From a virus (lineage: Duplodnaviria > Heunggongvirae > Uroviricota > Caudoviricetes): a stretch of DNA of 64,000 bases. Every line of letters starts with the position of its first letter. The first letter of the stretch is position 1. Shown in pieces: positions 8,713-48,313 of the stretch. The stretch lies in the IMG/VR virus record IMGVR_UViG_3300043803_001772; one strand, given 5' to 3'. The notes beneath the pieces are model-generated. The model was given only the letters and a program-made list of their open reading frames with translations. It had not been told where the DNA came from and did not search any database. A program made the position numbers and the translations under genes.

Positions 8713-9535
8713 TAGCAATCAAATCAAAAATGGACTTCTCAAGCTTGAGAAGAAAAACAAGTCTGAGTCTCACCTTTCTAGGGTTGACCACTTGGTTGCA
8801 TCGTTGACTGACATTGGCATCAACAAGCTTCCTCAATTTGACAGTGTGGATGAGTTCCTCAAGGAAGTGAATGATGTTAACAGTGATGCACATAAAATTG
8901 ACAATGTGCTTGCGTTGCCTGAGAACATCAAGCATCAAACTGGTCGTGGTGAGTTGTCTATGTTTTTGATGCTTGGTGATTCACGCAAGAGCAATATCAA
9001 ACGTGGTGAAACTGGTGATGTAACGCTTAATGACAAGTCGTATGAATTGAAGAAGGAAAGTGGCATTATTGATTTTGCTATCAAAACGAGGGGTGAAGTC
9101 ACTGATCGTTACAATGAACTTGTTATGATTCGTTCGTTTTGTGATAAGATTTTGAATGCCTATTTTGTTGACAGTAACGTTACCAAGTATTTTAATCAAT
9201 ATTTTCGTAAGAAGATCACTGAGTTTTCCAGTGCTGATTTTGAATTGTTTGATAATTTGTTGGTTATGATCAAATCTGATACTGATATTCGTAACAAGAT
9301 TACTGGTACTATTTTGATTGATGTTATCAATAACTTTTCAGCTTACGAATGGCGTAAGAAAGTTGCGCAACTGATTGTTAAAAGTTATAGTGGTGGTGTC
9401 GTTGTGTATCGTAAGAGCAAGAAGGGCAATCGTAAAGTAAAGCGAGTGGATAGCAAGTATGAATTGCTTGATGCTAAGAATGTTATTGTGCAGAATCTTA
9501 CACTGGGTAATATTCAGTTGAAGATTATTAATTAA
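8687..9535 (+). CDS. hypothetical protein (about 283 aa)
   Basis: The track ORF starts at TTG 8657, inside the promoter 8649-8676. The first ATG after the -10 is 8687 (MSTKSTTFFS...). Start is uncertain because a stem-loop plus T-run lies at 8669-8712. Confidence 0.45.
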   Translation: MSTKSTTFFSNQIKNGLLKLEKKNKSESHLSRVDHLVASLTDIGINKLPQFDSVDEFLKEVNDVNSDAHKIDNVLALPENIKHQTGRGELSMFLMLGDSRKSNIKRGETGDVTLNDKSYELKKESGIIDFAIKTRGEVTDRYNELVMIRSFCDKILNAYFVDSNVTKYFNQYFRKKITEFSSADFELFDNLLVMIKSDTDIRNKITGTILIDVINNFSAYEWRKKVAQLIVKSYSGGVVVYRKSKKGNRKVKRVDSKYELLDAKNVIVQNLTLGNIQLKIIN

Positions 9536-10241
9536 ACTCTATTATTGTTTCTTTATCTGATTTGAGTTTGGGATATTCTATAATGGGATAATTCAAACTT
9601 TTAATCAGATTTTTCTTTTCCACTTTGCTTCCCAGTGGATAGATATATCTTTCTTTGACTGACAATTCTTTGATTTTAAATGGTCTGGGTAGTACTTCTA
9701 TTAATTTGTTATAGTTAAACGTACCATATTTGTTAAATAGTGTACGTGAATGTTGCCATTTAACACCACCATCAAAACTAACAATATAACCACTGGTACC
9801 TTTGGGTCTTTCAATATTTTGATACAGCCAATTGGTAGCTTGATATATGGTACCGATGTGTCCAGCATCAGGATCAGCATAACTTATCAAACATTTTATT
9901 TCAGGATGATTGAGTTTGATATATTTCAAACATTGACCAATAACCCAACTTTCAGTATTTTTACCCAAATCATCTTCTACCCACAATCGTTTCAACTCCC
10001 ATAAATTGGAATGATTTAGTAAAGGTGATACACTTCTAGCCACATTAGCACCAGCAGTTGGTCCAAATACAACCGCCCCAACCAGCTTAGGCGCTTCAAA
10101 AAATACACTACCTTTGCTTTTGTCGAAGATTCCTATACACAACTCAGCTATGGTCCATTTGTGTGTATAATGATGTTTAACAATCAATTCTTTGGCAGTC
10201 AAATTGTTTACTTTTTCAACATAAAGATTTTCCATAAACAT
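9528..10241 (-). CDS. Mom-like DNA-modification acyltransferase (phage Mu Mom family), tentative
   Basis: From memory of the Mu Mom alignment: KHHYTHKW...VGAVVFGPTAGANVARS...WELKRLWV...KNTESWVIGQCLKYI...LISYADPDAGHIGTIYQATNWLYQ resembles the Mom HHY and SYAD..GH.G.IYQA.W.Y motifs. Opposite strand to the surrounding genes. Confidence 0.45.
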   Translation of the reverse strand: MFMENLYVEKVNNLTAKELIVKHHYTHKWTIAELCIGIFDKSKGSVFFEAPKLVGAVVFGPTAGANVARSVSPLLNHSNLWELKRLWVEDDLGKNTESWVIGQCLKYIKLNHPEIKCLISYADPDAGHIGTIYQATNWLYQNIERPKGTSGYIVSFDGGVKWQHSRTLFNKYGTFNYNKLIEVLPRPFKIKELSVKERYIYPLGSKVEKKNLIKSLNYPIIEYPKLKSDKETIIEFN

Positions 10242-16453: not shown

Positions 16454-16831
16454 TTAATTACTTACAGAACCTGTTGTTACCCAAGGCAATGGCGGTTGAA
16501 CCACCGGAGGATTTATTTGAGTATATAAACTAGATATAGCACCAGCTTCAATATTAGCTTTGCTACCAGTACCCATACTATCAAATGTCCATCCCAATAC
16601 CACATTCTCAGTCAATTGATCATATGGTATAAATGCTGAACCACTGTGGTATTGTACACCTGTGGTACCGTATAATCTACTGTTATATACACTGCCACTC
16701 AAACTACCTGTAGCAACCACAATGTTGCCCAAACAGTCCCAGTGTACAGTAAATACAACGTCGGTTTCTTGATCGTATTTTGGGTAACAGTCTAGGTTTG
16801 TTACTTTCCAAGTAATTGTTGGTTGATTCAT
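16454..16831 (-). CDS. hypothetical virion-associated protein (125 aa)
   Basis: ORF with an RBS-like AAAAAATATG context. Ser/Gly/Thr-rich. No motif recognised. Confidence 0.45.
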   Translation of the reverse strand: MNQPTITWKVTNLDCYPKYDQETDVVFTVHWDCLGNIVVATGSLSGSVYNSRLYGTTGVQYHSGSAFIPYDQLTENVVLGWTFDSMGTGSKANIEAGAISSLYTQINPPVVQPPLPWVTTGSVSN

Positions 16832-16836
16832 ATTTT

Positions 16837-17166
16837 TTAAGCTTGATATCTGCTATCAGTTTGTTTCCAATTTGGCACTTTGTTTTCCCAATAATCAATC
16901 CGTTCTTGTACTTTGTTCCAATCTTCAGGTGCTCTCAAATATTCAATGCTACCTTCGATTGTGGTTACTGTCCCATTTTCATCTGTATCTTCATAAGATG
17001 GTGTGGGTATTACAACAGTAGGAAATGCGCTGATATAAGGAAATGCTAGACGAACTTTTAATCCATCGTCTTCTAATACAGTAACGTCGTTTCTGTTACC
17101 ATATGCAGCAACAAATTCTCTACTCGCTTTGTCGTGAATATTATGTATTATTATTGTGTCTTTCAT
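16837..17166 (-). CDS. partner protein A of the Gly-rich fibre cassette (109 aa)
   Basis: Paralog of 19755-20126 (HNIHDK.SREFVA.YGNRNDV.VLEDDG..VRL..PYISAFPT...NTPSY...IDYWENKVPNWKQTDSRY). Conserved upstream motif TATTTATAATAGACT before the ATG. Confidence 0.5.
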   Translation of the reverse strand: MKDTIIIHNIHDKASREFVAAYGNRNDVTVLEDDGLKVRLAFPYISAFPTVVIPTPSYEDTDENGTVTTIEGSIEYLRAPEDWNKVQERIDYWENKVPNWKQTDSRYQA

Positions 17167-17211: not shown

Positions 17212-18501
17212 TTAAATATGTACTTTTCTCAGAGTTATAGCACCCGCTCCACCTGCACCGCCAGGAGAACCGCCGCCTGGACCATATCCAGGACCAACAC
17301 CAGCACTACCACCGCTCGCAACAACACTTCCAGCGTTAGTGTATGTACCACCATAAATTATTATGGTTCTACCACCTCCACTACCACCCCCACCCGCTCC
17401 ACTACCAGCGCCTCCACTTGGTCCTCCACCATTTCCACCAGCTGATCCGTTATTTGAAACAGTGCCATTTATTGTAATATTTCCTCTTACAATAAGTATT
17501 AACAATCCGCCGACACCAATTCCACCATTAGTTGCAGGTGGATCATTACGACCTGATCCAGCTGGGCCTGTTGGAGATCCAGCTCCTCCGCCGCCACCAC
17601 CTTGAATTCCAGCCCAACCAGCTCCTCCGCCACCACCAACTTCAAATGCAGCGGAAGATCCTCCTGTTTGTCCACCAGGGCCATTTCCAGAACCTCCACC
17701 TCCGCCTCCCGCAGAAAATATTGTACCTCTTCCTCCGGCACCACCATTGTAATAGTTACTAGCCCCACCTCCACCTCCGCCTCCACAACAAAATATACCA
17801 GCCGTTCCAGTTCCACCAATTCCAGTGAAGGGAGTACTAGTTTGTTGAATTCCACCGGCCCCCCCAGCAACACTTCCACTCAATGGCACTCGTATCTTAT
17901 AGTTGCTAAACCAAGCACTGCCACTAGGCGCCCAATTCATATGACCAATAGTTCCAGTGGCACTTGATGAAAAATTATTGAAATATAGTGTAGCATCCAC
18001 CAAATCATATCTTGAATCGGTGCTTGAAGCAATTCCAATAGGTGCAGCAATTTTGGAACCAACACCACCACCTTTACCAGTCATACTTATAGTACCGTTC
18101 ACGGTCAAGTCGCCTGTACAATATATAACCAAACCTCTACAAGCTCGTAATGGACTAAATAATAAGCCGCCGTTAATGGTTAAATTTTTAAAATTCTTTA
18201 CAATTATATCACCAAATTCACGGCTGATATTGTTTAATCCAGCGGGTGATGTGGATGAACTTATTTGCGCACTACTGCTTATGGTACAATCACCGTCTGT
18301 ACCTGTGCCAAAATAATTGTCGTAACTGCTTAAACTGCCTACTGTAGTATTATTGCTATAAAATAAATTGTGTGTAGTTATTCTAGCTTTTTTATTTCTA
18401 TTTGCTGATGAACTTATTGTCTGATCCAAAACGGGAAAAACATTTGTATTATTGTTTATACTGCCTGTTAAGGTACTTAATGCTGATATTAAAGTTGCCA
18501 T
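17212..18501 (-). CDS. glycine-rich beta-helix-like putative tail fibre/adhesin A (429 aa)
   Basis: MATLISALSTLTGS N-terminus; LTINGG...CRGLVIYCTGDLTVNGTISMTGKGG; poly-Gly tracts (CCGGGGGGGAS, GGGGGGSG); LLILIVRGNITINGTVSNNG; GGGRTIIIYGGTYTNAGSVVASGG. Paralog of 20127-21368. Confidence 0.55.
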   Translation of the reverse strand: MATLISALSTLTGSINNNTNVFPVLDQTISSSANRNKKARITTHNLFYSNNTTVGSLSSYDNYFGTGTDGDCTISSSAQISSSTSPAGLNNISREFGDIIVKNFKNLTINGGLLFSPLRACRGLVIYCTGDLTVNGTISMTGKGGGVGSKIAAPIGIASSTDSRYDLVDATLYFNNFSSSATGTIGHMNWAPSGSAWFSNYKIRVPLSGSVAGGAGGIQQTSTPFTGIGGTGTAGIFCCGGGGGGGASNYYNGGAGGRGTIFSAGGGGGGSGNGPGGQTGGSSAAFEVGGGGGAGWAGIQGGGGGGAGSPTGPAGSGRNDPPATNGGIGVGGLLILIVRGNITINGTVSNNGSAGGNGGGPSGGAGSGAGGGGSGGGRTIIIYGGTYTNAGSVVASGGSAGVGPGYGPGGGSPGGAGGAGAITLRKVHI

Positions 18502-18526: not shown

Positions 18527-19090
18527 CTAAAAATTCAATAAAGAATAATCTGGGTGTAATAAATCTTTATATTTATAAACTCTAAAATCTATACTCAGTC
18601 TTGTTTTGTTAGTATTGTTGAATTTATTACCGTGAAGTAAATTGCAACCATCCCAATGTACAAATTGACCGTAATCACATTTTATCGGAGAAAAATCGTG
18701 ACTGTCTTCAACTGATTCAGTCCAAATTGTGTTTGTATCAAAAGCATTTGTAAATGGTAAAAAAATATTATCTATCTGCATATCACTATAAATCGTATTT
18801 TTTCTATACCACTTGTCTTTATGAAGTTTATGCATATTTAATTTATTTTTATATACTAATCTACACACTGGTTTAGTTTGATATGCTATAACACCATTAT
18901 ACAACTCTGTGATATATTTTCTTATAAACTGTACATACATATCTAAAAACTGTTTATCTGATAGATAATCTGAATATAGTCGCTCTATGTCTTTATTTTC
19001 ATCCAAATTATCTAAATTAGATGTGTTTAAAACAGTTTGTAATTGTTCTTTAAAATTAAATTCTGTTATATCATATGAATATAATTTCAT
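18527..19090 (-). CDS. 2OG-Fe(II) oxygenase-like protein (HxD...H...RxS), tentative
   Basis: MHKLHKDKW (HxD), about 70 aa later LLHGNKF (second His), then 10 aa later KTRLSIDFRV (RxS). This is the facial-triad spacing of PhyH/2OG-Fe(II) dioxygenases. Very AT-rich relative to flanking Gly-rich genes. Confidence 0.4.
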   Translation of the reverse strand: MKLYSYDITEFNFKEQLQTVLNTSNLDNLDENKDIERLYSDYLSDKQFLDMYVQFIRKYITELYNGVIAYQTKPVCRLVYKNKLNMHKLHKDKWYRKNTIYSDMQIDNIFLPFTNAFDTNTIWTESVEDSHDFSPIKCDYGQFVHWDGCNLLHGNKFNNTNKTRLSIDFRVYKYKDLLHPDYSLLNF

Positions 19091-19758
19091 ATATCTGTCA
19101 AATAACCCATTCTGTGTTCGGTCGATAAATCTATATTATTATATATAATACGATTAATATTGTCATCTGTATGATAATTTTCTGTTATATCATTATTAAG
19201 TTTTACACCGACATAACTTTTATTAATAATGTATTGTTGATTTTTTTTAACCAATTCAAATTTATTGCTAATATCATTTAATACAAAATCAGTGTTGTGT
19301 TTCAAATCTTCGTATCGTATAAAATAATACTTATTTACTAACTCAGGCATATCGTCCAACAAATATTTACATTTTATAGAACGCATCTCAAATATGTTTT
19401 TGAATCTTAAATTGTTGTTTTTAAAATTTCTATCATCCAAAATATCTACATATTTTCCTTTGTGTAAATACACCGAATAAAATTCATTTAATAAAAAAGA
19501 CTCTATGTTTTGCGTTCTTTCTATAGGTTGTAATAGTTTGGAATTATAAAAAGATATTAAAAAATCTATGGGGTTTCTTGCAATACAAAAATAAATTACA
19601 TCTTGGTTATTTTTCAATTTATTTTCATATCCACTATAACCAAAAAAATGTTTCCAACCACCTAACCAATCCAACTTCAATTCAAAGTTATCAGATATCA
19701 ATTGTTCTAAAAAATTTGTTCCTGATCGTCGTTCCCCTAATATTGTATAACGATTCAT
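19087..19758 (-). CDS. sulfotransferase-like protein (PAPS 5'-PSB-like motif), tentative
   Basis: N-terminal TILGERRSGTNFLEQLI resembles the sulfotransferase 5'-phosphosulfate-binding loop (P/G)(K/R)SGTT. Overlaps the oxygenase-like gene by 4 nt, indicating coupling. Confidence 0.5.
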   Translation of the reverse strand: MNRYTILGERRSGTNFLEQLISDNFELKLDWLGGWKHFFGYSGYENKLKNNQDVIYFCIARNPIDFLISFYNSKLLQPIERTQNIESFLLNEFYSVYLHKGKYVDILDDRNFKNNNLRFKNIFEMRSIKCKYLLDDMPELVNKYYFIRYEDLKHNTDFVLNDISNKFELVKKNQQYIINKSYVGVKLNNDITENYHTDDNINRIIYNNIDLSTEHRMGYLTDI

Positions 19759-20126
19759 ACATATCTACTATCAGTTTGTTTCCAATTAGGCACTTTATTT
19801 TCCCAATAATCTATTCTACTGTGTACATCGTCCCAATTATTAGGACAACTTATATATTCAATACTAGCTGGTATAACTAAATCATCAACATTTATATCTA
19901 ATTTTATAGACACACCACCACTTTCTTCTGCAATTGGAGAATCTGTATAGGAAGGCGTGTTTATAATAATAGTTGGAAACGCACTAATATATGGATATTT
20001 TAATCGAACATTATACCCATCATCTTCTAACACAACAACATCATTTCTGTTACCATATGTAGCAACAAATTCTCTACTTATTTTATCGTGAATACTATGT
20101 AGTATGATTATATCTTTCATTTTCAA
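19755..20126 (-). CDS. partner protein B of the Gly-rich fibre cassette (123 aa)
   Basis: Paralog of 16837-17166. Starts immediately after the stop of Gly-rich protein B. Confidence 0.5.
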   Translation of the reverse strand: MKMKDIIILHSIHDKISREFVATYGNRNDVVVLEDDGYNVRLKYPYISAFPTIIINTPSYTDSPIAEESGGVSIKLDINVDDLVIPASIEYISCPNNWDDVHSRIDYWENKVPNWKQTDSRYV

Positions 20127-21368
20127 TTAAATATGTACTTTTCTCACTGTTACGCTACCTGCTCCTCCTGATCCCCCCGAGCCAGCAGGGCCTGCTCCAC
20201 CACTTCCACCATTCGCAACCACGCTTCCAGCATTGGTGTATGTACCTCCATAAATTATTAAAGTTCTACCACCTCCACTACCTCCACCACCACCCGCATT
20301 ATCACTACCGTTAGCCGCACCTAGTCCACCGGTTGTCCCATTATTTGAAACAGTACCATTTATTGTAATATTTCCCCTCACAATAAATACTAATAACCCG
20401 CCAACACCTATTGATCCATTAGTACCAGGACCAGGTTGATTTAAAACTCCCGCGCCCCCACCGCCAGTAGGTCCATAGTAGTTTCGTGAACCAGCACCAC
20501 CACTTTCAAGAAGTCCTGAACTTCCAGCAGTAACTGCAAGTAGAAGCCCACCATAACCGCCGCCGCCACCGCCGCCACCAGTAAATATTGTCCCCCTACC
20601 TCCAGCATAACCAGATCCAAAAGAACCATATTTTTGTGCCCCATTACCACCACCGCCTCCACCCCCACAACAAAAAATTCCAGCTGTGCCAGTTGATCCA
20701 GCTCCACTACCCCCACTTCCGCCGGCGCCTCCAGCAACACTTCCACTTAATGGCACTCTTATCTTAAAATTACTAAACCAAGTACTACCACTAGGCGCCC
20801 AATTCCAATGCGTAGGTATGCCTCTTCCACCAGAAGCACTTGATGAAAAATTATTGAAATATAGTGTAGCATCCACCAAATCATATCTTGAATCTGTACT
20901 TGATGCAAGTCCAATAGGCGCAGCAATTTTGGCAACAACACCGCCGCCTTTGCCAGTCATACTTATGGTACCGTTCACGGTCAAGTCGCCTGTACAATAT
21001 ATAACCAAACCTCTACAAACTCGTAATGGACTAAACAATACGCCGCTGTTGATAGTTAAATTTTGAAAATTCTTTACAATTGTATCGCCAAATTCACGGC
21101 TGATATTGTTTAATCCAGCGGGTGAAGTTGATGAACTTATTTGCGCACTACTGCTTACAGTGCAATTACCATCGGCGCCTGTACCAAAATAATTATCATA
21201 ACTACTTAAACTGCCTACTGTAGTATTATTGCTATAAAATAAATTATGTGCTGTTATTCTAGCTTTTTCATTTGTATTTGATATTAAATCAACAATAGGC
21301 AGTACACAAGTATCATTGTTTTTGCTGCCTGTCAATATTGACATTGATGATATTGATAAAGTTGCCAT
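20127..21368 (-). CDS. glycine-rich beta-helix-like putative tail fibre/adhesin B (413 aa)
   Basis: Near-collinear with 17212-18501 and shares long identical nucleotide stretches (for example ccagtcatacttatggtaccgttcacggtcaagtcgcctgtacaatatataaccaaacctctacaa). Confidence 0.55.
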   Translation of the reverse strand: MATLSISSMSILTGSKNNDTCVLPIVDLISNTNEKARITAHNLFYSNNTTVGSLSSYDNYFGTGADGNCTVSSSAQISSSTSPAGLNNISREFGDTIVKNFQNLTINSGVLFSPLRVCRGLVIYCTGDLTVNGTISMTGKGGGVVAKIAAPIGLASSTDSRYDLVDATLYFNNFSSSASGGRGIPTHWNWAPSGSTWFSNFKIRVPLSGSVAGGAGGSGGSGAGSTGTAGIFCCGGGGGGGNGAQKYGSFGSGYAGGRGTIFTGGGGGGGGYGGLLLAVTAGSSGLLESGGAGSRNYYGPTGGGGAGVLNQPGPGTNGSIGVGGLLVFIVRGNITINGTVSNNGTTGGLGAANGSDNAGGGGGSGGGRTLIIYGGTYTNAGSVVANGGSGGAGPAGSGGSGGAGSVTVRKVHI

Positions 21369-21370
21369 AA

Positions 21371-22402
21371 TTATAAAACTTGCAATTCCTTTATAGTAAT
21401 GCTTCCTGCTCCGCCATCGCCACCTTTAGTTGGTGCGGTACCCCCACCTATACCACCAGAAACGGAAATAGTACCTCCGTTATTAACATAACCTTGATTA
21501 TATAATATTACTATTCTACCACCTCCACTACCTCCTCCACCACCAGCAGATCCAGCGCCACCATTTACCCCACGTGCCGTGATTATACCAGTATTACCAA
21601 GTGTAAATGTTCCTTTAACAACGAGAATAATTAATCCGCCAGTTCCAGTTCCTCCACTTATTCCACCTGGGCCACCTGCTCCACCATTATTACCAGCTCC
21701 CCCACCAGTGTTAGCTGCACTACCTGCTCCACCGGCGCCACCATTAACAGAACCAGCTGTAGCACTTGGTCCACCCCCACCACCCGATCCACCACTCCAA
21801 CTGGTACCTGCGGTTCCTGCACCACCAGCATAACCACCTCCGCCTCCACCAGTATAACCTTCTCCAGCAGATCTACCTGCTGTACTAGCCGCACCACCTC
21901 CACTGCCTGAACCATACAATTTTACACTATTAAATTGATATTGAGGTATAAAGTTACCATAATAATTTTTAGCTTGATATACATAATGAGCTGCGGTTCC
22001 AACTGCATTTGCGCCTTTAGCTGTCATAGTAAGTGTACCATTTATAGTACAATCACCGGCTACGTATATTAATAAACCCTTACACCGATTGCTTACGGTC
22101 ATTGTATGACCAGCATTGATTGTGAGAGATGTATAATTTCTTACCAATACTTCCGCGTCATTAGACGTTGCAAATGTTACACTCGATGTTGTGTTCAATG
22201 AACCATTAGCACCAGTCCCAAACCAAGTTATAGCTGATTGAGAAAACTGACTACATACATTTGTATATTTAACCTTTTTGTTAAAATCTACGTATCCATC
22301 TGCATTTTGATCTTTTGTAGCAGTCGCATCATATACCAAATAATAATTACTTGATGATATAATTGAAGTTTCTGTTAAATCTGTTATACGTTTATTTGCC
22401 AT
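21371..22402 (-). CDS. glycine-rich fibre-like protein C with N-terminal RITDL anchor motif (343 aa)
   Basis: MANKRITDLTE N-terminus; CKGLLIYVAGDCTINGTLTMTAKGA; Gly tracts; LIILVVKGTFTLGNTGIITARG; GGGRIVILYNQGYVNNGGTISVSGG. Confidence 0.55.
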   Translation of the reverse strand: MANKRITDLTETSIISSSNYYLVYDATATKDQNADGYVDFNKKVKYTNVCSQFSQSAITWFGTGANGSLNTTSSVTFATSNDAEVLVRNYTSLTINAGHTMTVSNRCKGLLIYVAGDCTINGTLTMTAKGANAVGTAAHYVYQAKNYYGNFIPQYQFNSVKLYGSGSGGGAASTAGRSAGEGYTGGGGGGYAGGAGTAGTSWSGGSGGGGGPSATAGSVNGGAGGAGSAANTGGGAGNNGGAGGPGGISGGTGTGGLIILVVKGTFTLGNTGIITARGVNGGAGSAGGGGGSGGGRIVILYNQGYVNNGGTISVSGGIGGGTAPTKGGDGGAGSITIKELQVL

Positions 22403-22415
22403 ATATTATTAAATA

Positions 22416-23558
22416 TTAGTTTGCTGCTGGAAATGCAGTATTTAGTTTTTGTATTATAGCAGTTCCAGCTCCACCAGCTCCACTAGCTCCTCCACCAAAT
22501 GGAGATCCACCGGAACCACCATTTGATGTGACAGATCCATTATTAGTCAATTGACCACCATAATATACATATAACACTCCACCCCCACTACCCCCACCCG
22601 CGCCACTGCCTCCAACTATGTTTGCATTATTACCCGCGCTCCCATTAGTAGTTATACTACCATTTGGTCCTATTTTTAAATTACCCCTCACAATTAATAT
22701 TAACAATCCACCCGTGCCTGTTGCTGTTTGTGATCCACCTGTTCCATTTGGATTTCCAGCTCCTCCACCACTATTACCACCTCCACCTCCATTTCCACCT
22801 GCTCCTCCAATCGGACTACCATTAGATCCCGCGCCAGCCGGAGCTCCGCCTCCGCCGCCTCCAGCTCCACCACTATAAGACGTTCCTGTTCCTCCTGATC
22901 CTCCTCCTGCTGTTCCATATGGACCAGTACTGGTAGAACCTCCACCTCCACCACCTGATCTTCCCAATCCACCAGCTGTTCCAGCAGTTGAACCACCGCC
23001 GCCTGCCGCACCAACAGCAAATACTCTGCTCAAATAACTTGATGATGGAAACAACTGTGTGCTCCAATAATCACCCAAATATGGCGGATTTACTGTTGTA
23101 AAAGAAGCATCTGCACCTACAGCAGACGCGCCTCTAGAGGTCATAGTTATGCTGCCACTGATAGTCGCATCACCATCCACAAATATCAACATACCTCTAC
23201 ATCTGTTAGGCGGACTTATAACCACACTTCTAGAAATGAACAGTGAGCTAAAGTTCTTGATGACAGGAGGACCATCACTAGTGCTTGCGAACGAAGCGGA
23301 TATACGAGTTCTTAGAGTTGTGATAGAACCACTGAAGTTGCCTGATCCATCGCTATTATCACCAAAATAATAAAGACCAGGTGTATGTTTGGTAAACGAA
23401 GAGGAATTATTTCCATTTAAATAAAAATATTTTCGTAAATCATTTACACTTATTTTTTTATTTTTGGAATTTATAGATTCATTAGCGTCTACTATGGGAA
23501 CAAATGAACCAGTTGATATTATGATACTCTCAGCTAAATCTGTAATTCTAGTTGGCAT
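22416..23558 (-). CDS. glycine-rich fibre-like protein D with RITDL anchor (380 aa)
   Basis: MPTRITDLAES...PIVDANE...KNKKISVNDLRK. Paralog of 23572-24750 (shared LYYFGDNSDG.GNFSGSITTLRTRISASF...CRGMLIFVDGDATISGSI). Confidence 0.55.
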   Translation of the reverse strand: MPTRITDLAESIIISTGSFVPIVDANESINSKNKKISVNDLRKYFYLNGNNSSSFTKHTPGLYYFGDNSDGSGNFSGSITTLRTRISASFASTSDGPPVIKNFSSLFISRSVVISPPNRCRGMLIFVDGDATISGSITMTSRGASAVGADASFTTVNPPYLGDYWSTQLFPSSSYLSRVFAVGAAGGGGSTAGTAGGLGRSGGGGGGSTSTGPYGTAGGGSGGTGTSYSGGAGGGGGGAPAGAGSNGSPIGGAGGNGGGGGNSGGGAGNPNGTGGSQTATGTGGLLILIVRGNLKIGPNGSITTNGSAGNNANIVGGSGAGGGSGGGVLYVYYGGQLTNNGSVTSNGGSGGSPFGGGASGAGGAGTAIIQKLNTAFPAAN

Positions 23559-23571
23559 ATATTATTATATA

Positions 23572-24750
23572 TTAATTCGCTACAGGAAACGCAGTGTTTA
23601 GTTTTAATAAAACAGATGTACCAGCTCCTCCTGCTCCTCCCTGATTGACAGTTGGCGCTGCTGGTGTACCAGTTAAACCACCTGATCCACCGTTGGATGT
23701 AACAGTACCATTGTTTGTTAATGTGCCACCATAATAAATATATAAAACGCCACCTCCACTTCCACCCCCACCCGCACTTCCAAAAGCAGCAATTCCATTA
23801 CCCCCACTGATTCCATTAGCTACAATTGATCCATTTGGACCTATTTTTAAATTGCCTCTTACAATTAATATTAATAATCCACCTGTACCGGCTGGGGCGG
23901 AGACTGGGAGAGGACTAAATGGTGCCGCGGCTGGCGTTACACCACCTGGATTGCCAGCTCCACCTCCTCCGTAACCAAGTGTTGGACCACCTTGACCACC
24001 AAATGCAAAACCATTCGCTCCCGGAGATGGTCCTCCTCCTCCTCCTCCTGACCCACCACTAAAAGATGTGCCTGCTGATCCAGCTCCACCTGCAGCTGCT
24101 TGTCCACCTCCTCCACCGCCGCCTCCACTTCTTCCTAATGTACCAGTTACACCAGTACCACCAACACTAGATGGAGTAGGACCAGCTGGACCGCCACTTG
24201 CGCCTATAGCAAATACTCTGCTCAAATAACTTGATGATGGAAACAATTGAGTGCTCCAATAATCACCCAAATATGGCGGATTTATTGATCTAAAAGACGC
24301 ATCACTTCCAGTGAATTTTGCACCTCTAGCAGTCATACTAATACTACCACTAATGGTTGCATCTCCATCAACAAATATCAACATACCTCTACATCTGTTA
24401 GGCGGACTTATAACCACACTTCTAGAAATAAAAAGGCTACTAAAGTTTTTGATGACAGGAGGCCCGTCTAATGAGCTAGAAAATGAAGCGGATATTCTGG
24501 TTCTGAGAGTTGTGATGGATCCGCTAAAATTGCCTGGCCCATCACTATTATCACCAAAATAATAAAGGCCTGGGGTATGTCTAATAAAAGAGCTAGTATT
24601 TCGTGAATTTAAGTAAAAAACTTTTCTTAAATCGGTTATGCTTATTTTTTTATTTTTATCACCAACTGTTTCGTTGTTGTCAACTATTGGTATAAATGCC
24701 GATGCGGTTAATAAATTATATTCAGCTAGTTGTGAAATTTTTGTAGGCAT
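23572..24750 (-). CDS. glycine-rich fibre-like protein E with anchor (392 aa)
   Basis: MPTKISQLAEY...PIVDNNE...KNKKISITDLRK. Paralog of 22416-23558. Confidence 0.55.
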   Translation of the reverse strand: MPTKISQLAEYNLLTASAFIPIVDNNETVGDKNKKISITDLRKVFYLNSRNTSSFIRHTPGLYYFGDNSDGPGNFSGSITTLRTRISASFSSSLDGPPVIKNFSSLFISRSVVISPPNRCRGMLIFVDGDATISGSISMTARGAKFTGSDASFRSINPPYLGDYWSTQLFPSSSYLSRVFAIGASGGPAGPTPSSVGGTGVTGTLGRSGGGGGGGGQAAAGGAGSAGTSFSGGSGGGGGGPSPGANGFAFGGQGGPTLGYGGGGAGNPGGVTPAAAPFSPLPVSAPAGTGGLLILIVRGNLKIGPNGSIVANGISGGNGIAAFGSAGGGGSGGGVLYIYYGGTLTNNGTVTSNGGSGGLTGTPAAPTVNQGGAGGAGTSVLLKLNTAFPVAN

Positions 24751-27387: not shown

Positions 27388-28251
27388 TTACTGATAATTT
27401 TCTGTAGAACTACCAAGAATATAATTATTAGATCTTAGAAAAGTGTAAATTGATGTTGCACTCGGTAAAATATTAGTGGGATAGAGTGAATTTGCCCATT
27501 TAACTGTAACTGGAAACGTTGGAAGAACATTGTTTGAACCTGTATTGTTTAATATGACGACTATAGCACTACCTGTTCCAACATTTGTAAACGTATAAGT
27601 TTCACTAGTTGATACATTTTTTTCAAGTGTATTATTGGTCCAGTTAATTGATGTACCTGACAGTGTAGCTATCGTATAATTAGTTAAAGCATTTATCGCA
27701 AAAGTAGCATAACTGCTTGTAATTGGATAACTACTACCTGTACTTAAAGAAGATCCTCCGCTAGCATTTAAAGCGTAACTAGCTGTAATCGATCTTCTCG
27801 AATAACTGCTTGTTATGGGATACGTACTTCCAGTAAATAATGTAGTACCGCTTATACCACTACTTCCACTACTACCACTTGAACCATTGGTGCCGGATGT
27901 ACCACTTGTTCCACTAGTGCCACTGGTACCACTTGTTCCACTGGTGCCACTGGTGCCACTTGATCCACTAGTACCACTGTTACCTGATGTACCACTCGTA
28001 CCAGCATTTGCGTTTAAAGCGTAACTAGCTGTAATTGATCTTACCGCATAACTACTTGTTATAGGATAAGTACTACCTGTACTTAAAGTTGTTCCTCCAG
28101 CTCCTGACTTCAGTGAGTAACTAGCGGTCAAAGATCTTAAAGCGTAACTACTTGATCCAATTATTGTATTTTTAAAAAAAACACTACCACTTACTTTAAG
28201 TGATCCGCTTAAAATAGTTGATCCGGATAATGTCGGTGAGTAAATGATCAT
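27388..28251 (-). CDS. collagen-like (Gly-X-Y, proline-free) short fibre protein (287 aa)
   Basis: (GTS/GSS)n tract of about 40 triplets flanked by TGSTYPITSSY..SITASYALNA repeats shared with the giant fibres. Confidence 0.5.
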   Translation of the reverse strand: MIIYSPTLSGSTILSGSLKVSGSVFFKNTIIGSSSYALRSLTASYSLKSGAGGTTLSTGSTYPITSSYAVRSITASYALNANAGTSGTSGNSGTSGSSGTSGTSGTSGTSGTSGTSGTSGTNGSSGSSGSSGISGTTLFTGSTYPITSSYSRRSITASYALNASGGSSLSTGSSYPITSSYATFAINALTNYTIATLSGTSINWTNNTLEKNVSTSETYTFTNVGTGSAIVVILNNTGSNNVLPTFPVTVKWANSLYPTNILPSATSIYTFLRSNNYILGSSTENYQ

Positions 28252-28285: not shown

Positions 28286-31200
28286 TTATGTTATTCGTAT
28301 TTGTAGTATATTTCCATTGCGGTACACGCCACCGCGTGGTACTCCGCCAGTACCAGCCGCAGTATCATTTGCGAAATTTAGTGATGCTGATACATAAGAC
28401 AATATCAGATATCCATTGCTAATCGTCTGACTATTTTTAAAATTATTACTACCGGTTGTTGCTAAATTAGATGCAGCTGGTATTGTTCTTAATCCACTTC
28501 TTGTGGCAATGGCATATCCACTACTTGATACAGGAAAAGTAATTGTAGCCGTATTTAAATTTGTAAGTACAATGGTTTGTGGTAATACTTGGTTAAAACT
28601 ATTATTATAAGTTTGTATCAATACTGGTTTACTACCAAGATTGTGATTAAATGTCCACGTGGGGGAATTATTAAAAGAAGAACTTACACTGTCACTATTT
28701 AATAAATTAAGAGCTACACTAGCAGTAATTGCTTTTCTTGACCAACTACTGGTTATAGGATAAGTACTGCCTGTATATAGTTTATAACTACTGCTCAATA
28801 CTCTTAATCCACCCATCGTCGCAATAGCTGTTCCAGCAACAGGCGATGGAAAAATCATTCTTATATGATTTGCATCTAACCATTTAGTTGTTGTGGGTAA
28901 TATTAATTCATATACATTATTATAAGCTTGTACGACAACTTGTTTTTGACCCAAACTATGAGTAAAATTCCATGTTGTAGAACTTCCAAAAGATTGAGTT
29001 ACACTATTGCCAAAGTTGTTAGCATAACTAGCTGTAATTGCTTTGAAAGCCCAGCTACTGGTTATAGGATATTTACTACTTGTATAAATTCTAGTGCCTG
29101 CATTAACAGCCCAACTACTGGTTATAGGATAAGTACTGCCTGTATTTAAGTTGTAATAACCATAACTGCTACTAAATATTCGTACACCACCTCTGGTTGC
29201 AATAGCATAACCACTAGCTGATATTGGGAACGTTAATCTAGCACTATTAACTGTATCCAATATAATACTTTGAGGTATTATTTGATTATAACTTGTATTA
29301 TAGGCTTGAATTACTACAGTTCGTTCACCCAAGTTATGATTAAATGTCCAAGTAGCTAAATTATTGAATGATTGTGTAACACTGTTACCAAAGTTAAGAG
29401 CATAACTAGCAGTTAATACTCTAGTGGCCCAACTGCTTGTTATAGGATATTTACTACCAGTGTGTAATGATGATCCACCTCCACCCCCACCAGCGGCGTT
29501 ACCCAAAAATCTAACATCAATCTTTGAATTTAATGGCGGTGCAGATGCTAATGTGAGTGTAGATCCAGTTACAGTATAACTTGAACTGTAATTTTGCACT
29601 ACACCGTTAATAGCAACTATAATATCATAACTGCGTATTACACTTTGTGTAAGCGCATATTGTGTAACAATACCATTGCTTGTAAATGTTTGCGCATTGG
29701 CAATACCAACTATACCACTGGTGCCACTTGTACCGTTTGCACCACCCCCAGTAAATTTAACAACGTGTATTTCTTCATTTAATAGTGGTGGGGAAGTAAA
29801 TGTCAATACACCTGAACTGAGTGTATAATCAACACCATTATTTAAAGTAATACCGCCAAGAAATACCAATGAATTTGTGCCGGTAAATGTATTATTATTT
29901 AAATTAAAAACAGATCCACTGCCATTGCCACTACGTGTAATATTAGTCAAACTCAATGAAGCAGTGCCACTAGTTCCATTTACTACATACAATGCCCAAC
30001 TTGCAGTAATAGGATAACTACTACCAGTGTACAAAGAACTACCACCACCAGTAGCATTTAAAGCATAACTAGCAGTTATAGCTCTACTAGCAGTAATTGG
30101 ATATGTGCTTCCTGTTATTAAAAGAGTACCACTGTTTCCACTTGATCCGCTACTTCCAGTTTCACCACTACTTCCACTACTACCATTAGTTCCACTAAAT
30201 CCACTGCTTCCGCTTGTACCACTTTGACCACTAGTACCACTGGTACCAGTAGCGCCACTTGTTCCACTAGATCCACTTGTGCCGCTCGTACCAAATGTTT
30301 CACCGCTTGTACCGGCAGTAGCCGCAGTACCACTTGTACCACTACTTCCACTACTACCACTACTTCCGCTACTACCACTAGATCCACTGGTACCGCTACT
30401 ACCACTTGTACCACTAGATCCACTTGTACCGCTTGTACCAAATGTTTCACCACTCGTACCAGCAGTAGCTGCAGTACCACTGGTGCCACTACTTCCTCCT
30501 GTACCACTACTTCCACTTGATCCGCTACTACCACTTGTACCATTAACTCCAGAAGTGCCACTGGTACCACTTGTACCGTCACTGCCTGATGTACCGCTTG
30601 ATCCACTGGTACCACTACTGCCACTGCTTCCAGCGGTGCCACTTGTTCCACTACTACCGCTACTTCCACTTGTTCCACTTTGACCACTACTGCCACTGCT
30701 TCCAGTAGTACCACTTGTTCCGCTAGTACCACTGGTACCATTTGTATCTACTATGTTGATTGTACCAATCATAGAACTATGATTTGCACATTGATAAACT
30801 ATACTGCTCGGCGCATTCAGTGGAACATCATATATTATTGTAACATTGTAAGCTCCATTTACAGGATCATTATTTGTTGTTCCTGGCACAACAGATGTAT
30901 CACCATTTGACAATCTTAAAGCAAACGGATGTGTTGATGATACAGATGTAAGATTAAAATAGTGTTTTAATCCACGTACTACGGTGATGGTTGGATTACT
31001 ACCGGATATATTATTAAAAGTATAATAAAATCCAGGTGAATTTACTACAAACGTTTTACCGCCTTCCAATCCACTTGTACCACTGGTACCGCTAGATCCA
31101 CTACTACCACCGCTTCCGCTACTGCCACTTGTTCCATTTTGACCACTTGTACCAGATGTTCCACTTGTACCATCACTTCCGCTTGTACCACTAGTACCGC

Positions 31201-31888
31201 TTGAGCCTGTTAATCCACTTGTGCCACTTGTACCAGATGAACCACTGCTTCCACTACTACCACTACTACCGCTAGATCCACTACTTCCACTGGTACCTGA
31301 TGTACCACTTGTACCGCTGGTGCCACTACTTCCAGCTGTGCCTGATGTACCTGATGTACCACTGGTTGTTTGATTTAAAGCGTAACTTGCGGTTACTGCC
31401 CAACTTGCAGTTATGGGATATGTACTTGATGTAAACAGTTTGGTACCACTGTTTAATGCCCAACTTGCGGTTATAGGATAGGTACTACCTGTATATAATT
31501 TGGTGCCACCGTTTAATGCCCAACTTGCAGTTATTGGATAAACACTACCTGTATATATTTTTGTACCACCGTTTAAAGCGTAACTTGCGGTGGTTGTTCT
31601 AAAAGCATAACTTGATGATCTAGCTGTTAATGCGTAACTAGCTGTTGTGGATCTTCTAGCATAACTTGCAGATGTTGCGTTAAATGAATAACTGGAAGAT
31701 AAAGAGTAACTAGCTGAAATTGCTTTTCTTGAGAAACTGGCAGTTATGTTTGGGGAAGAAAAAAGAGTACTGATATCAATCTTTTTACTTGACCCAGAAA
31801 AAAAGCTGCCTGTATCACTTACATCAATTACATACAGCAAATCATTGATAGACGCTGTAAATAATTGTGGTAGATCTGTTATTCTCAT
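28286..31888 (-). CDS. giant tail-fibre protein (1200 aa) with RITDL anchor, two collagen-like tracts and 20-aa YPITASW repeats
   Basis: MRITDLPQLFTASINDLLYVIDVSD...KKIDISTLF N-terminus. ALNGGTKLYTGSTYPITASW x3. Two G-(T/S)-S tracts with an internal duplication (GTSGTAATAGTSGETFGTSG twice). Confidence 0.6.
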   Translation of the reverse strand: MRITDLPQLFTASINDLLYVIDVSDTGSFFSGSSKKIDISTLFSSPNITASFSRKAISASYSLSSSYSFNATSASYARRSTTASYALTARSSSYAFRTTTASYALNGGTKIYTGSVYPITASWALNGGTKLYTGSTYPITASWALNSGTKLFTSSTYPITASWAVTASYALNQTTSGTSGTSGTAGSSGTSGTSGTSGTSGSSGSSGSSGSSGSSGSSGTSGTSGLTGSSGTSGTSGSDGTSGTSGTSGQNGTSGSSGSGGSSGSSGTSGTSGLEGGKTFVVNSPGFYYTFNNISGSNPTITVVRGLKHYFNLTSVSSTHPFALRLSNGDTSVVPGTTNNDPVNGAYNVTIIYDVPLNAPSSIVYQCANHSSMIGTINIVDTNGTSGTSGTSGTTGSSGSSGQSGTSGSSGSSGTSGTAGSSGSSGTSGSSGTSGSDGTSGTSGTSGVNGTSGSSGSSGSSGTGGSSGTSGTAATAGTSGETFGTSGTSGSSGTSGSSGTSGSSGSSGSSGSSGSSGTSGTAATAGTSGETFGTSGTSGSSGTSGATGTSGTSGQSGTSGSSGFSGTNGSSGSSGETGSSGSSGNSGTLLITGSTYPITASRAITASYALNATGGGSSLYTGSSYPITASWALYVVNGTSGTASLSLTNITRSGNGSGSVFNLNNNTFTGTNSLVFLGGITLNNGVDYTLSSGVLTFTSPPLLNEEIHVVKFTGGGANGTSGTSGIVGIANAQTFTSNGIVTQYALTQSVIRSYDIIVAINGVVQNYSSSYTVTGSTLTLASAPPLNSKIDVRFLGNAAGGGGGGSSLHTGSKYPITSSWATRVLTASYALNFGNSVTQSFNNLATWTFNHNLGERTVVIQAYNTSYNQIIPQSIILDTVNSARLTFPISASGYAIATRGGVRIFSSSYGYYNLNTGSTYPITSSWAVNAGTRIYTSSKYPITSSWAFKAITASYANNFGNSVTQSFGSSTTWNFTHSLGQKQVVVQAYNNVYELILPTTTKWLDANHIRMIFPSPVAGTAIATMGGLRVLSSSYKLYTGSTYPITSSWSRKAITASVALNLLNSDSVSSSFNNSPTWTFNHNLGSKPVLIQTYNNSFNQVLPQTIVLTNLNTATITFPVSSSGYAIATRSGLRTIPAASNLATTGSNNFKNSQTISNGYLILSYVSASLNFANDTAAGTGGVPRGGVYRNGNILQIRIT
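30088..30703. repeat. GGN/AGY-rich collagen-like triplet-repeat DNA (G-T/S-S)n
   Basis: More than 600 nt of 9-nt-periodic accactDccgct-type repeats. The complementary strand gives spurious PLVP ORFs. Confidence 0.6.
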
Positions 31889-34680: not shown

Positions 34681-35382
34681 TTATAGTCCAAATCTGTTTT
34701 TAGTTGCGTTGTAATTAAATAATATTTCGCTGGAACTCAATACTCTGTTATATAATCTTACAATTGCTATACTGCCATTGAAATAACTGGGTGCCCAAGT
34801 AGCTGCTCCTATTTGTAAAGAGGTTGATGTATTAGGCAAAGTTGATGGTAAACTATTAACTCTACCACTGTATGATGTTTCTCTTCCATTAACAAACGTT
34901 CTTAATTGAGCACTTGGTGTAGCCAAACCAATTACTTGATTCCACGATCCCAAAGTTACACCTGTAGAAGTTTCTAAATAAACATCTGAGCCAGGAGAAC
35001 TCCAGTCAAAATATAAGTTACCCGAACTATACGCTATAAACCTGGGATTATCAGGTGTAGCACCACTGTCACTTGTTCCTCTATTTAAAAATGTGCCTGT
35101 TGTTGCAACGGTGGGTTTAATCCACACTTCATATGTAGCGCCATTTGGGGTGTTTAAAATAGAATTATATGGAACATTTACATAATCATTGGTACCATCA
35201 AATACTATACTTCCTTGATTACCCGCGCTAAAAGTGGGACCATTGGTTAATGTGCCTGTATTGTTATTGCCGCTCAAATCACGCCAAGTGGTACCTGTGC
35301 CAGGATAACTAAGTTTATCAGCAGCATCTAGTGCTAATACCAAACCGCTTGTTACAATTTTTGGACCTCTGGCTATTCCCAT
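34681..35382 (-). CDS. standalone Laminin_G_3/ConA-like lectin-fold protein, copy 3 of cluster 1 (233 aa)
   Basis: GLVLALDAADKLSYPGTGTTWRDLSGNNNTGTLTNGPTFSAGNQGSIVFDGTNDYV... ending IVRLYNRVLSSSEILFNYNATKNRFGL. This is the FDG.NDYV plus YNRaLsaeEi signature of the LamG_3 family. Confidence 0.6.
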   Translation of the reverse strand: MGIARGPKIVTSGLVLALDAADKLSYPGTGTTWRDLSGNNNTGTLTNGPTFSAGNQGSIVFDGTNDYVNVPYNSILNTPNGATYEVWIKPTVATTGTFLNRGTSDSGATPDNPRFIAYSSGNLYFDWSSPGSDVYLETSTGVTLGSWNQVIGLATPSAQLRTFVNGRETSYSGRVNSLPSTLPNTSTSLQIGAATWAPSYFNGSIAIVRLYNRVLSSSEILFNYNATKNRFGL

Positions 35383-35393
35383 ATACAGTATAA

Positions 35394-36101
35394 TTATAAA
35401 CCGAATCTTGTTTTAGTTGCGTTATAATTTTGCAATACTTCAGCTGTACTTAATGCTCTATTGTATATAAGGGCCGTTGATATATTTCCTTGCCAATATC
35501 TTCTAGAATTAATCGCATCAGCCCCTATACTTAATAAAGCAGATGCATTTTGTTTAAGTGTTCCATCATATGCGATACCACCATCTAAAATTCCGTTATA
35601 ATAAAAATAAACTTGACCCGCAGTTGCATTTGCTACCATTGATATATTATACCAAATATTTGTAGAAAAGTTTGTAGCGGTAGATGTAGTTTCACGATAA
35701 GTATTGTTACTTTGCCTAACTCCCCACCCCCATCTTTTAGGCGACAAATCGGCTCTCCAAAGTATATAATAGAGTTCATCACTAGCTGCACCTAATTCTA
35801 TAGGATTTCTTATTGTTGTGTCACTAGCAGTCAATCTAAGCCAAATAGAAAGTGTAACACTTGTAGACGGATTAAAAATACTGTTATATGTAAAACCAAC
35901 ATAATCATTTGTACCATCAAATACTATACTACCCATATTACCCGCGTTAAAAGTGGGACCATTGGTTAATGTGCCTGTGTTATTATTACCGCTTAAATCA
36001 GTCCACGTTGTGCCACTGCCTTTATAACTAAGTTTATCAGCTGCATCTAGTGATAAAACACATCCGCTTGTAATTATTTTGGGTCCTGATATTCCTGACA
36101 T
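35394..36101 (-). CDS. standalone LamG_3-like protein, copy 2 of cluster 1 (235 aa)
   Basis: Same conserved N-terminus and C-terminus (ALIYNRALSTAEVLQNYNATKTRFGL). Divergent central region. Confidence 0.6.
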   Translation of the reverse strand: MSGISGPKIITSGCVLSLDAADKLSYKGSGTTWTDLSGNNNTGTLTNGPTFNAGNMGSIVFDGTNDYVGFTYNSIFNPSTSVTLSIWLRLTASDTTIRNPIELGAASDELYYILWRADLSPKRWGWGVRQSNNTYRETTSTATNFSTNIWYNISMVANATAGQVYFYYNGILDGGIAYDGTLKQNASALLSIGADAINSRRYWQGNISTALIYNRALSTAEVLQNYNATKTRFGL

Positions 36102-36104
36102 ATA

Positions 36105-36773
36105 TTAGTATCCATATCTGCTTTTTGTAGCATTGTAATTTTGAAGTATTTCCGTTGCACTTAATTCTCTATTGTATATAGAAAATGTACTTACATTTCC
36201 GGTAAATTTAGACCAAAATGAATCTGGAGAACTACCTATTCTAATTGAATTTGAACTTATAGATAAATTACCTAAAGCAATAGTATTTTGTAATTTACCG
36301 TTTATATAACCTGACATAGTTGAATTAACAGTGTATGTTAATATTAAATTATACCATCTATTTACAATGATTGTATCTATAGGACTAATTGTATAAGTTG
36401 TAGTAGATACTTTTATATCTATTGATCCTCCATCAAATAAATTATATCCATTGGCAGAATTGATGCCTGAATGTTTGTTTGCAACACTCGCTGCTCTACC
36501 CGGTAAAGAGGTGGGTTTATACCAAACACTAATAGTTTGTGTATTTGCATTTAAAGTGTCATTATTAGATATATCTACATAATCATCCACACCATCAAAT
36601 AATATACTACCCATATTACCAGCGCTAAATGTAGGACCATTAGTTAATGTGCCGTTATTATTATTGCCGCTTAAATCTCTCCACGTGGTACCTGTGCGAG
36701 GATAGCTTAGGCGTTCAGCTGCATCTAATGCTAATACCAAACCGCTTGTGACTATTCGTGGGCTATAGTACAT
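36105..36773 (-). CDS. standalone LamG_3-like protein, copy 1 of cluster 1 (222 aa)
   Basis: Same conserved ends (LFDGVDDYV ... SIYNRELSATEILQNYNATKSRYGY). Confidence 0.6.
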   Translation of the reverse strand: MYYSPRIVTSGLVLALDAAERLSYPRTGTTWRDLSGNNNNGTLTNGPTFSAGNMGSILFDGVDDYVDISNNDTLNANTQTISVWYKPTSLPGRAASVANKHSGINSANGYNLFDGGSIDIKVSTTTYTISPIDTIIVNRWYNLILTYTVNSTMSGYINGKLQNTIALGNLSISSNSIRIGSSPDSFWSKFTGNVSTFSIYNRELSATEILQNYNATKSRYGY

Positions 36774-47607: not shown

Positions 47608-47618
47608 ATACAGTATAA

Positions 47619-48302: not shown

Positions 48303-48313
48303 ATATATTATAA

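Follow-up and report, generated by a model that had tools for sequence, protein, structure and literature searches.

The 64,000-nucleotide viral sequence IMGVR_UViG_3300043803_001772 (hereafter the window, meaning the whole of this stretch) spans the genomic region for tail fibres and baseplate in a large, uncultured freshwater phage of T4-like type, to which no cultured phage is closely related. Among its genes for Gly/Ser/Thr-rich fibre-like proteins is a compact set of three genes coding for a small partner protein, a predicted sulfotransferase (ST) of the type that uses 3′-phosphoadenosine 5′-phosphosulfate (PAPS), and a predicted Fe(II)/2-oxoglutarate dioxygenase (Oxy). We refer to these three genes as the cassette. 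The two enzymes are new, divergent representatives of their superfamilies, in an arrangement not described before in a phage, and we propose, tentatively, that the cassette serves to hydroxylate and sulfate an acceptor associated with the fibres.

Organization of the cassette

In the order of transcription, the genes are:

19755..20126, minus strand: cassette-type small partner, 123 aa from a TTG start or 121 aa from ATG; opens the cassette
19087..19758, minus strand: ST, PAPS-type sulfotransferase, 223 aa, soluble; middle gene
18527..19090, minus strand: Oxy, PhyH-like Fe(II)/2-oxoglutarate dioxygenase, 187 aa, soluble; last gene

The original prediction, made from the sequence by itself, described a coupled gene pair, and the open reading frame (ORF) map shows the two ORFs exactly as described, with the ST stop and the Oxy start sharing 4 nt (ATGA). 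The partner gene immediately upstream overlaps the ST start in the same manner, again by 4 nt (ATGA), and the coupled genes are three (partner–ST–Oxy), not two. The ST protein begins with the sequence MNRYTILGERRSGTNFL. A 25-nt gap separates Oxy from the next fibre gene, and the cassette and the distal-fibre genes are all encoded on one strand. A scan for promoters and terminators gave no signal above chance (53 versus 51 ± 8 in shuffled sequences), and no terminator-like sites flank the ST/Oxy pair. There is a promoter-like match at 11 of 12 positions within the 3′ end of the ST gene, which is uninterpretable in such AT-rich DNA.

The ST/Oxy pair is, as had been noted, AT-rich, with a GC content of 0.25 that is the lowest of the 59 window ORFs analysed (mean 0.355, standard deviation 0.045). 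The encoded proteins are rich in Lys, Asn, Ile and Tyr and poor in Gly. The GC content at third codon positions (GC3) is 0.19–0.21, equal to that of the flanking structural genes (0.17–0.24), and because of this equality the AT-richness is attributable to amino acid composition and not to a foreign codon signature. The comparison of GC content with the flanks, which the original prediction had called for, rules out the low GC as a sign of recent horizontal acquisition.

The sulfotransferase

The ST passes the Pfam threshold for PF00685 (Sulfotransfer_1; 24.9 bits with a cutoff of 22, E 1.6e-5), and many of its near relatives bear precomputed PF00685 assignments. Its predicted structure has the sulfotransferase alpha/beta fold, with an AlphaFold predicted local distance difference test (pLDDT) score of 89.7. 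In an alignment of 35 relatives, with identity down to 37%, the 5′-phosphosulfate loop G8-E-R-x-S-G-T14 is invariant or nearly so (G8, E9, R10, G13 and T14 are invariant). R61 and S69 in the 3′-phosphate-binding motif are invariant, as is the dipeptide K36-H37, which resembles the K-x-H of the SULTs and may contain the catalytic base (His in cytosolic SULTs). The segment GERRSGTNFL near the start of the protein, first picked out as resembling a PAPS-binding loop, begins at G8, and its conservation across the family is far beyond chance. The family profile is colinear with mouse SULT7A1 in the SGT, RNPxDxxxS and YEDLK regions, with matches to the KSGTHW loop and to RNPKDTAVS. The Pfam match, fold and motifs agree with one another and with the identity first proposed, and on these sequence features the protein is a PAPS-type sulfotransferase. 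The modelled fold does not discriminate among protein, sugar and small-molecule acceptors.

The dioxygenase

The Oxy motifs listed in the original prediction, H90-K-D92, L-H153-G and R164-L-S166, are present and are invariant in family alignments. The residues of the predicted iron-binding HxD...H facial triad (H90, D92 and H153) are unchanged in an alignment of 33 sequences and in one of 52 sequences that reaches down to ~25% identity; R164 and S166 are also invariant, and the RxS motif starts 11 residues past H153, opening the long last strand, where an RxS that binds the C5-carboxylate of 2-oxoglutarate is expected (about 10 residues after the distal His). H153 lies on a short strand in the predicted secondary structure, and the two placements together give the canonical layout. 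The predicted structure has a double-stranded beta-helix fold. When a broader Oxy profile is aligned with PtlH, H90 and D92 fall on FHQD and H153 on the distal His, which are the iron ligands in the PtlH structure, and R164 and S166 fall on R-M-S; the match has an E-value of only 0.084. The first comparison of an Oxy profile with the PDB had returned spurious Fis matches only. Matches to PhyH are weak, below threshold, and are seen for three of 33 Oxy relatives (best E 0.0033); P0326 scores 19.1 bits with a cutoff of 22, and some relatives are labelled by the Joint Genome Institute as 'ectoine hydroxylase-related dioxygenase (PhyH family)'. The proposed 2-oxoglutarate/Fe(II) oxygenase identity is thus upheld by the fold and the invariant triad but not by the Pfam PhyH threshold, which is not reached, and we consider Oxy to be a predicted PhyH-like Fe(II)/2-oxoglutarate dioxygenase.

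An exhaustive profile search places 977 clusters (at 50% identity) in the Oxy family at E ≤ 1e-10. Judged by sequence models, the family is distinct and undescribed, and Pfam does not include it. Relatives linked to glycosyltransferase family 2 (GT2) genes have an 11-residue segment and ~20 C-terminal residues that members of the window clade lack, and these differences are consistent with a changed acceptor.

Maintenance, distribution and mobility of the cassette

Orthologues from four related contigs give ratios of non-synonymous to synonymous divergence (dN/dS) of 0.11–0.16 for ST and 0.10–0.24 for Oxy, with one Oxy outlier of 0.47 at low divergence, and the synonymous divergence (dS) of the cassette reaches 1.6. 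These values indicate that both are real genes maintained by purifying selection. In the index of the metagenome collection, 76 blocks contain the exact ST protein, and the phage recurs in a lake time series. No signal peptides or hydrophobic (transmembrane) segments are predicted in either protein, and both enzymes are therefore expected to be cytoplasmic, in the compartment that supplies PAPS and in which virions are put together.

The genes that flank the cassette and that are needed for comparing its positions are:

20127..21368, minus strand: Gly/Ser/Thr-rich fibre-like protein copy A, 413 aa, 24% Gly, upstream of the cassette
17212..18501, minus strand: Gly/Ser/Thr-rich fibre-like protein copy B, 429 aa, 26% Gly, downstream of the cassette
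16837..17166, minus strand: small partner of the 109-aa type (p109), which occurs with or without the cassette
16454..16831, minus strand: DUF7936 protein (Pfam DUF7936, E 8e-22) at the end of the fibre operon, a context marker

Related contigs reach 171 kb (for example IMGVR_UViG_3300008114_000008). All 13 of the cassette-bearing contigs examined have the order partner (121–123 aa)–ST–Oxy, always within the fibre module, although the position varies. In the window, L004 and L181–L184 the cassette lies between two fibre genes, in L012–L015 it is past both fibres, and in L001–L003 it is past a single fibre; the DUF7936 gene keeps its position in L001–L003 and L181–L184. The original description of a pair inserted in the middle of a duplicated unit is accurate for the window, but the conserved mobile unit is partner–ST–Oxy. 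In the related contigs L176–L179 the arrangement is fibre–fibre–p109 and the cassette, including its partner, is missing, with L176 and L177 running on into DUF7936. The 109-aa partner of L176 is 100% identical in amino acid sequence to that of the window, and the two are ~83% identical in nucleotide sequence across the second fibre and what lies downstream of it. The lone partner gene of L176 aligns with both partner copies of a cassette-bearing relative, a pattern that is expected if the cassette is gained or lost by recombination between partner paralogues. From these comparisons the cassette is an optional three-gene module, mobile within the fibre module, with a partner paralogue of its own.

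Fibre and partner proteins

The fibre plus partner duplication noted in the original prediction is real: the two fibres share 69% amino acid identity, and the two partners 63%, with the cassette-type partner having an extra insert of ~14 residues. Both fibres stand in tandem with three further Gly-rich paralogues (21371–22402, 22416–23558 and 23572–24750; 34–38% identity), five in all. The description of the fibres as proline-free and collagen-like does not hold for these two, which contain 16 and 11 prolines and have no collagen match; the collagen-like PHROG matches belong to other genes (27388–28251 and 28286–31888). Fibre copy A has a weak match to PHROG 13336 and sits in the tail-fibre/baseplate module. 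The partner and fibre proteins have no meaningful matches in Pfam, PHROG or PDB, and for the cassette partner there is no match at all in these three. The partner family has 73 clusters, is unannotated, and is restricted to this phage group.

We note that the motif [ST]D[ST]RY has just four occurrences in the six-frame translation of the window, one to two residues from the C-terminus of both partners (a conserved TDSRY in the 109-aa partner) and near residue 160 in each of the adjacent fibres. Partner orthologues conserve it, those from phages without a cassette included, and it is missing from partner variants of 96–98 aa. Possibly it is an interaction motif or a modification site. The idea that it is a dedicated sulfation site is weakened by its presence, unchanged, in phages that have no cassette, and by its loss from the short partners.

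Wider relatives and their genomic contexts

A tblastn search with ST and Oxy against 50,697 deposited phage genomes gave no match, and neither did megablast and tblastn searches of deposited phage genomes with the region and a fibre. The DNA ligase is at best 37–50% identical to its relatives, which are in an uncultured phage and in Alphaproteobacteria phages such as Caulobacter Cr30. In more distant viral loci, where pairing was judged within 10 kb, none of 65 distinct Oxy loci has an ST and none of 56 distinct ST loci has an Oxy.

In 36 of 56 loci the distant Oxy gene (~211 aa) is directly followed by a GT2 gene, and further neighbours include GT2 enzymes, methyltransferases, DegT, RgpF, epimerases and dehydratases. 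Natural fusions of Oxy-family proteins (metagenomic P0297, P0346, P0366 and P0383) join them to GT10, a DegT aminotransferase, Branch plus RgpF, and WbsX. An unannotated conserved gene of ~226–233 aa precedes Oxy in many of the distant loci. This ~230-aa gene was considered as a hidden ST and rejected (BLASTP E 0.2–0.8, no colinearity, no sulfotransferase Pfam match), as was the gene after a distant ST (L008) as a hidden oxygenase (hhalign probability 0.7%).

Contexts of distant viral STs are mixed: their neighbours include a DNA ligase (11 loci), sugar enzymes and other sulfotransferases, and many of the contigs are from giant viruses. Among 87 ST neighbours scanned, 11 match DNA_ligase_A_M and 11 match Ogg-HhH (8-oxoguanine glycosylase-like), a context unrelated to fibres or glycans; in the uncultured phages L099, L115, L121, L127, L131, L141, L165, L166, L170, L171 and similar ones, the ST has a ~437-aa DNA ligase on one side and a ~239-aa protein on the other. 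In cells, members of the ST family are rare (28 loci in 185,579 species), and their neighbours there include GT2, GT1, other sulfotransferases, an adenosine 5′-phosphosulfate (APS) kinase and a sulfatase. The closest 'bacterial' ST match (40% identity) is in a Rhodospirillaceae metagenome-assembled genome (contig L185), where it is flanked by a 3,010-aa protein with 28% Gly and a haspin-like kinase (L185:10739-19771(-) and L185:8337-9926(-), respectively). A Collagen Pfam match (E 2e-267) among the L185 neighbours is most likely to the 3,010-aa Gly-rich protein, and the contig is probably giant-virus DNA binned into the bacterial assembly.

Proposed function and alternatives

The reading that we prefer, with a probability of roughly 0.4, is that an acceptor associated with the fibres is hydroxylated and O-sulfated late, in the cytoplasm. 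The cassette would be expressed late, transcribed together with the fibre genes, and its products would work in the cytoplasm with 2-oxoglutarate, Fe(II), O2 and PAPS supplied by the host. The dioxygenase would create or expose a hydroxyl on the acceptor, and the ST would O-sulfate that hydroxyl or a neighbouring one, such that cassette-bearing phages would have negatively charged, sulfated fibres. The acceptor could be a protein side chain, in the Gly/Ser/Thr-rich fibres or in the partner, or, alternatively, a glycan attached by glycosyltransferases encoded outside the window; because both enzyme families have glycan ancestry, we give carbohydrate and protein acceptors about equal odds. The pairing of Oxy, family-wide, with a transferase that decorates hydroxyls (GT2 elsewhere, ST here) suggests a hydroxylate-then-decorate pathway. 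The predicted enzymes, their coupling, and their location in the fibre module of every close relative that carries them all favour fibre decoration as it was originally put forward, but the fibres as substrate are only putative. The alternative offered at the same time, modification of a glycan, is at least as well supported by the distant contexts as direct protein modification.

Two more specific forms of fibre decoration can be considered. One is a self-contained virion-sulfation module, in which the partner would present or recruit the fibre, Oxy would hydroxylate a residue of the fibre or partner, or a glycan, and ST would cap it; we think this unlikely. The other, the most specific and the main reading of the original prediction, which we think distinctly unlikely, is a protein-only scheme like that predicted for bacterial operons by Iyer and colleagues (see below), in which no sugar is involved. 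Oxy would hydroxylate Pro, Lys, Asn or Asp of the fibre or partner, and ST would sulfate the new hydroxyl or a Tyr, Ser or Thr, for example in the D-x-R-Y near the partner C-terminus. The wider contexts of the two families weigh against a purely protein-directed activity.

Several observations count against fibre decoration as a whole. In relatives that lack the cassette, the fibres are the same and the 109-aa partner is identical, so fibre function does not depend on the enzymes. Between the window and L012 (9330-10564), ST is 74% identical with a dS of 1.6 and Oxy is 89% identical with a dS of 0.28, and this mosaic divergence within the cassette implies that the two genes recombine independently. 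Pairing of ST with Oxy is confined to this clade, with no independent viral recurrence, and what surrounds the two families in distant loci speaks for polysaccharide chemistry, not for modification of proteins. The fibre neighbours and 30 further window ORFs were scanned, and none was found to encode a glycosyltransferase, a nucleoside diphosphate (NDP)-sugar enzyme, or an APS kinase/ATP sulfurylase. The window Oxy has no Pfam hit, PhyH (PF05721) included, and the residue before SGT in ST, canonically Lys or Arg, is Arg in this clade and Cys in most of the family. Moron accessory genes also often adjoin fibre genes without acting on them. Homologues away from fibre genes, which the original prediction had named as evidence against itself, are found among the distant relatives, whereas the close ones are all in the fibre module.

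The same glycan ancestry (Oxy followed by GT2 in 36 of 56 loci and fused to glycan enzymes; cellular ST found with glycosyltransferases and a sulfatase) could also be read as pointing to the host surface. The cassette would then oxidise and sulfate cytoplasmic precursors of a host envelope polysaccharide, such as an O-antigen, capsule or S-layer glycan, that would be the receptor for these fibres, blocking superinfection or the sticking of progeny to debris, and would travel with the fibre genes as a host-range module. With no phage glycosyltransferase in the window ORFs scanned, a glycan made by the host is the simplest carbohydrate acceptor, and the cassette is optional among near-identical phages in the way that receptor- or serotype-modifying accessory genes are. 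We nonetheless regard this as somewhat unlikely. The cassette is translationally coupled into a late fibre operon, with no promoter or terminator of its own above chance, and late expression in a lytic T4-like phage would leave little time for remodelling; the window showed neither an integrase nor a lysogeny gene, and the constant presence of a fibre-partner paralogue belonging to the cassette is left unexplained.

It is also conceivable that ST and Oxy are auxiliary metabolic genes whose products have a soluble metabolite, or separate targets, as substrates, and that they simply hitch-hike in a hypervariable fibre zone that is prone to recombination. The flanking paralogous repeats of partners and fibres would promote gain and loss, ST and Oxy differ in their divergence history, distant STs are in unrelated contexts (such as beside DNA ligase in 11 loci), and PhyH-type enzymes commonly act on small molecules. 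Against this are the strict coupling and constant gene order, the co-inheritance of three genes through dS >1 under purifying selection, and the finding that the cassette is outside a fibre module in none of the 13 contigs, and we judge hitch-hiking to be very unlikely.

Comparison with known systems

The closest precedent for fibre decoration is an in silico study of bacterial operons that encode PhyH-type and beta-hydroxylase dioxygenases with a sulfotransferase, and often a PAPS synthetase (Iyer, Abhiman, de Souza and Aravind 2010, NAR 38:5261; PMC2938197); co-encoded Gly-rich/collagen-like or phage tail-collar proteins were proposed to be hydroxylated and then sulfated (PMC2938197). The cassette resembles these operons in that a PhyH-type dioxygenase and an ST adjoin a gene for a Gly-rich fibre-like protein, here in 13 contigs, and the hydroxylate-then-sulfate logic is the same. 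The operons are bacterial, however, and have further components, none of which were found here in the ORFs scanned: a beta-hydroxylase, methyltransferase fusions, tail-collar domains and, often, a PAPS synthetase. Specifically, Asp/Asn beta-hydroxylase, PAPS synthetase and tail-collar domains were absent from the Pfam matches of the fibre neighbours and 30 further window ORFs. The cassette, in contrast, sits in a real phage fibre module. To our knowledge the hydroxylation and sulfation of substrates by such operons are likewise predictions.

In giant viruses, Moumouvirus australiensis (Ma461/Ma457) and Cotonvirus have a sulfotransferase and a SAT/APS kinase (sulfate adenylyltransferase with APS kinase) in fibril-glycosylation clusters (PMC10117803). 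There too a virus-encoded ST is proposed to decorate virion surface fibrils, and in both cases sulfation is a prediction. Among giant-virus contigs, relatives of the window ST are common; one, a Satyrvirus protein, shares 39% identity with it over 120 columns. The giant-virus ST lies among glycosyltransferases, NDP-sugar enzymes and a PAPS-synthesis gene of the virus's own, with no dioxygenase partner described, whereas the cassette is in a tailed phage and has a dioxygenase partner, with none of those sugar and PAPS genes found in the ORFs scanned. The Oxy–GT2 pairs of large uncultured phages (L005, L006 and ~60 further loci) belong to the same Oxy family at 38–49% identity and have the same invariant active-site residues. 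In these pairs Oxy is tightly coupled to a transferase that acts on hydroxyls, as it is here, although the transferase is a GT2 and not an ST, the clusters are not in fibre modules, and the Oxy is ~211 aa with the 11-residue segment and the C-terminal tail.

Compared with PtlH (2rdn), AndA and the sugar-acting AviO1, EvdO1/O2, HygX and KanJ, the window Oxy shows only 8–14% identity, and at 187 aa it is shorter than those PhyH-like oxygenases (220–320 aa); a substrate cannot be transferred from these matches. Glycosylation of mycobacteriophage virions is established (Freeman et al. 2023, as cited in PMC12619734). As that citing account presents it, tailoring enzymes lie beside structural genes and act on virion proteins in the cytoplasm, as we propose for the cassette, but they are glycosyltransferases that act on the C-termini of capsid and tail-tube proteins, and the account as cited describes no sulfation or oxygenase. 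Sulfotransferases are annotated in cyanophages and uncultured phages, and more generally in many phage and giant-virus genomes, with a role stated to be unclear (PMC10580990). In agreement with the original prediction, no described phage fibre-sulfation system was found in the literature searched.

A compact, conserved and optional cassette that is joined to tail-fibre genes, and that pairs the ST with a dioxygenase whose relatives otherwise go with glycosyltransferases, gives an annotated viral ST an unusually clear context. If the fibres or their glycans are sulfated, this would be a new chemical layer in phage host recognition and the first post-translational hydroxylation and sulfation system for a phage virion, with effects on receptor binding, charge or stickiness, and it would give experimental footing to the 2010 prediction for Gly-rich fibre-like proteins. 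The coexistence in lakes of near-identical phages with and without the cassette would then be a natural experiment. Whatever the target, the analysis delineates a large uncharacterised dioxygenase family with ties to viral glycan clusters, which neither Pfam nor the deposited phage genomes searched contain.

Other features of the window

Several other window genes are of interest. A 237-aa protein (9528-10241(-)) belongs to the Mom family (PF25680, E 2e-43), and suggests, from sequence, DNA base modification in this phage resembling that by Mu Mom. Two triplets of genes coding for proteins of ~222–235 aa (34681-36773(-) and 46903-48994(-)), the first gene of each matching PHROGs 24074 and 8510, adjoin giant baseplate-wedge-like proteins (1,122–1,626 aa), and the structural region is therefore built of repeated modules. 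Among the 30 further window ORFs scanned are GIY-YIG and NUMOD3 matches indicating a homing endonuclease, a dCMP-deaminase-like ORF, and an AAA_33/KTI12/Zeta-toxin-like kinase ORF.

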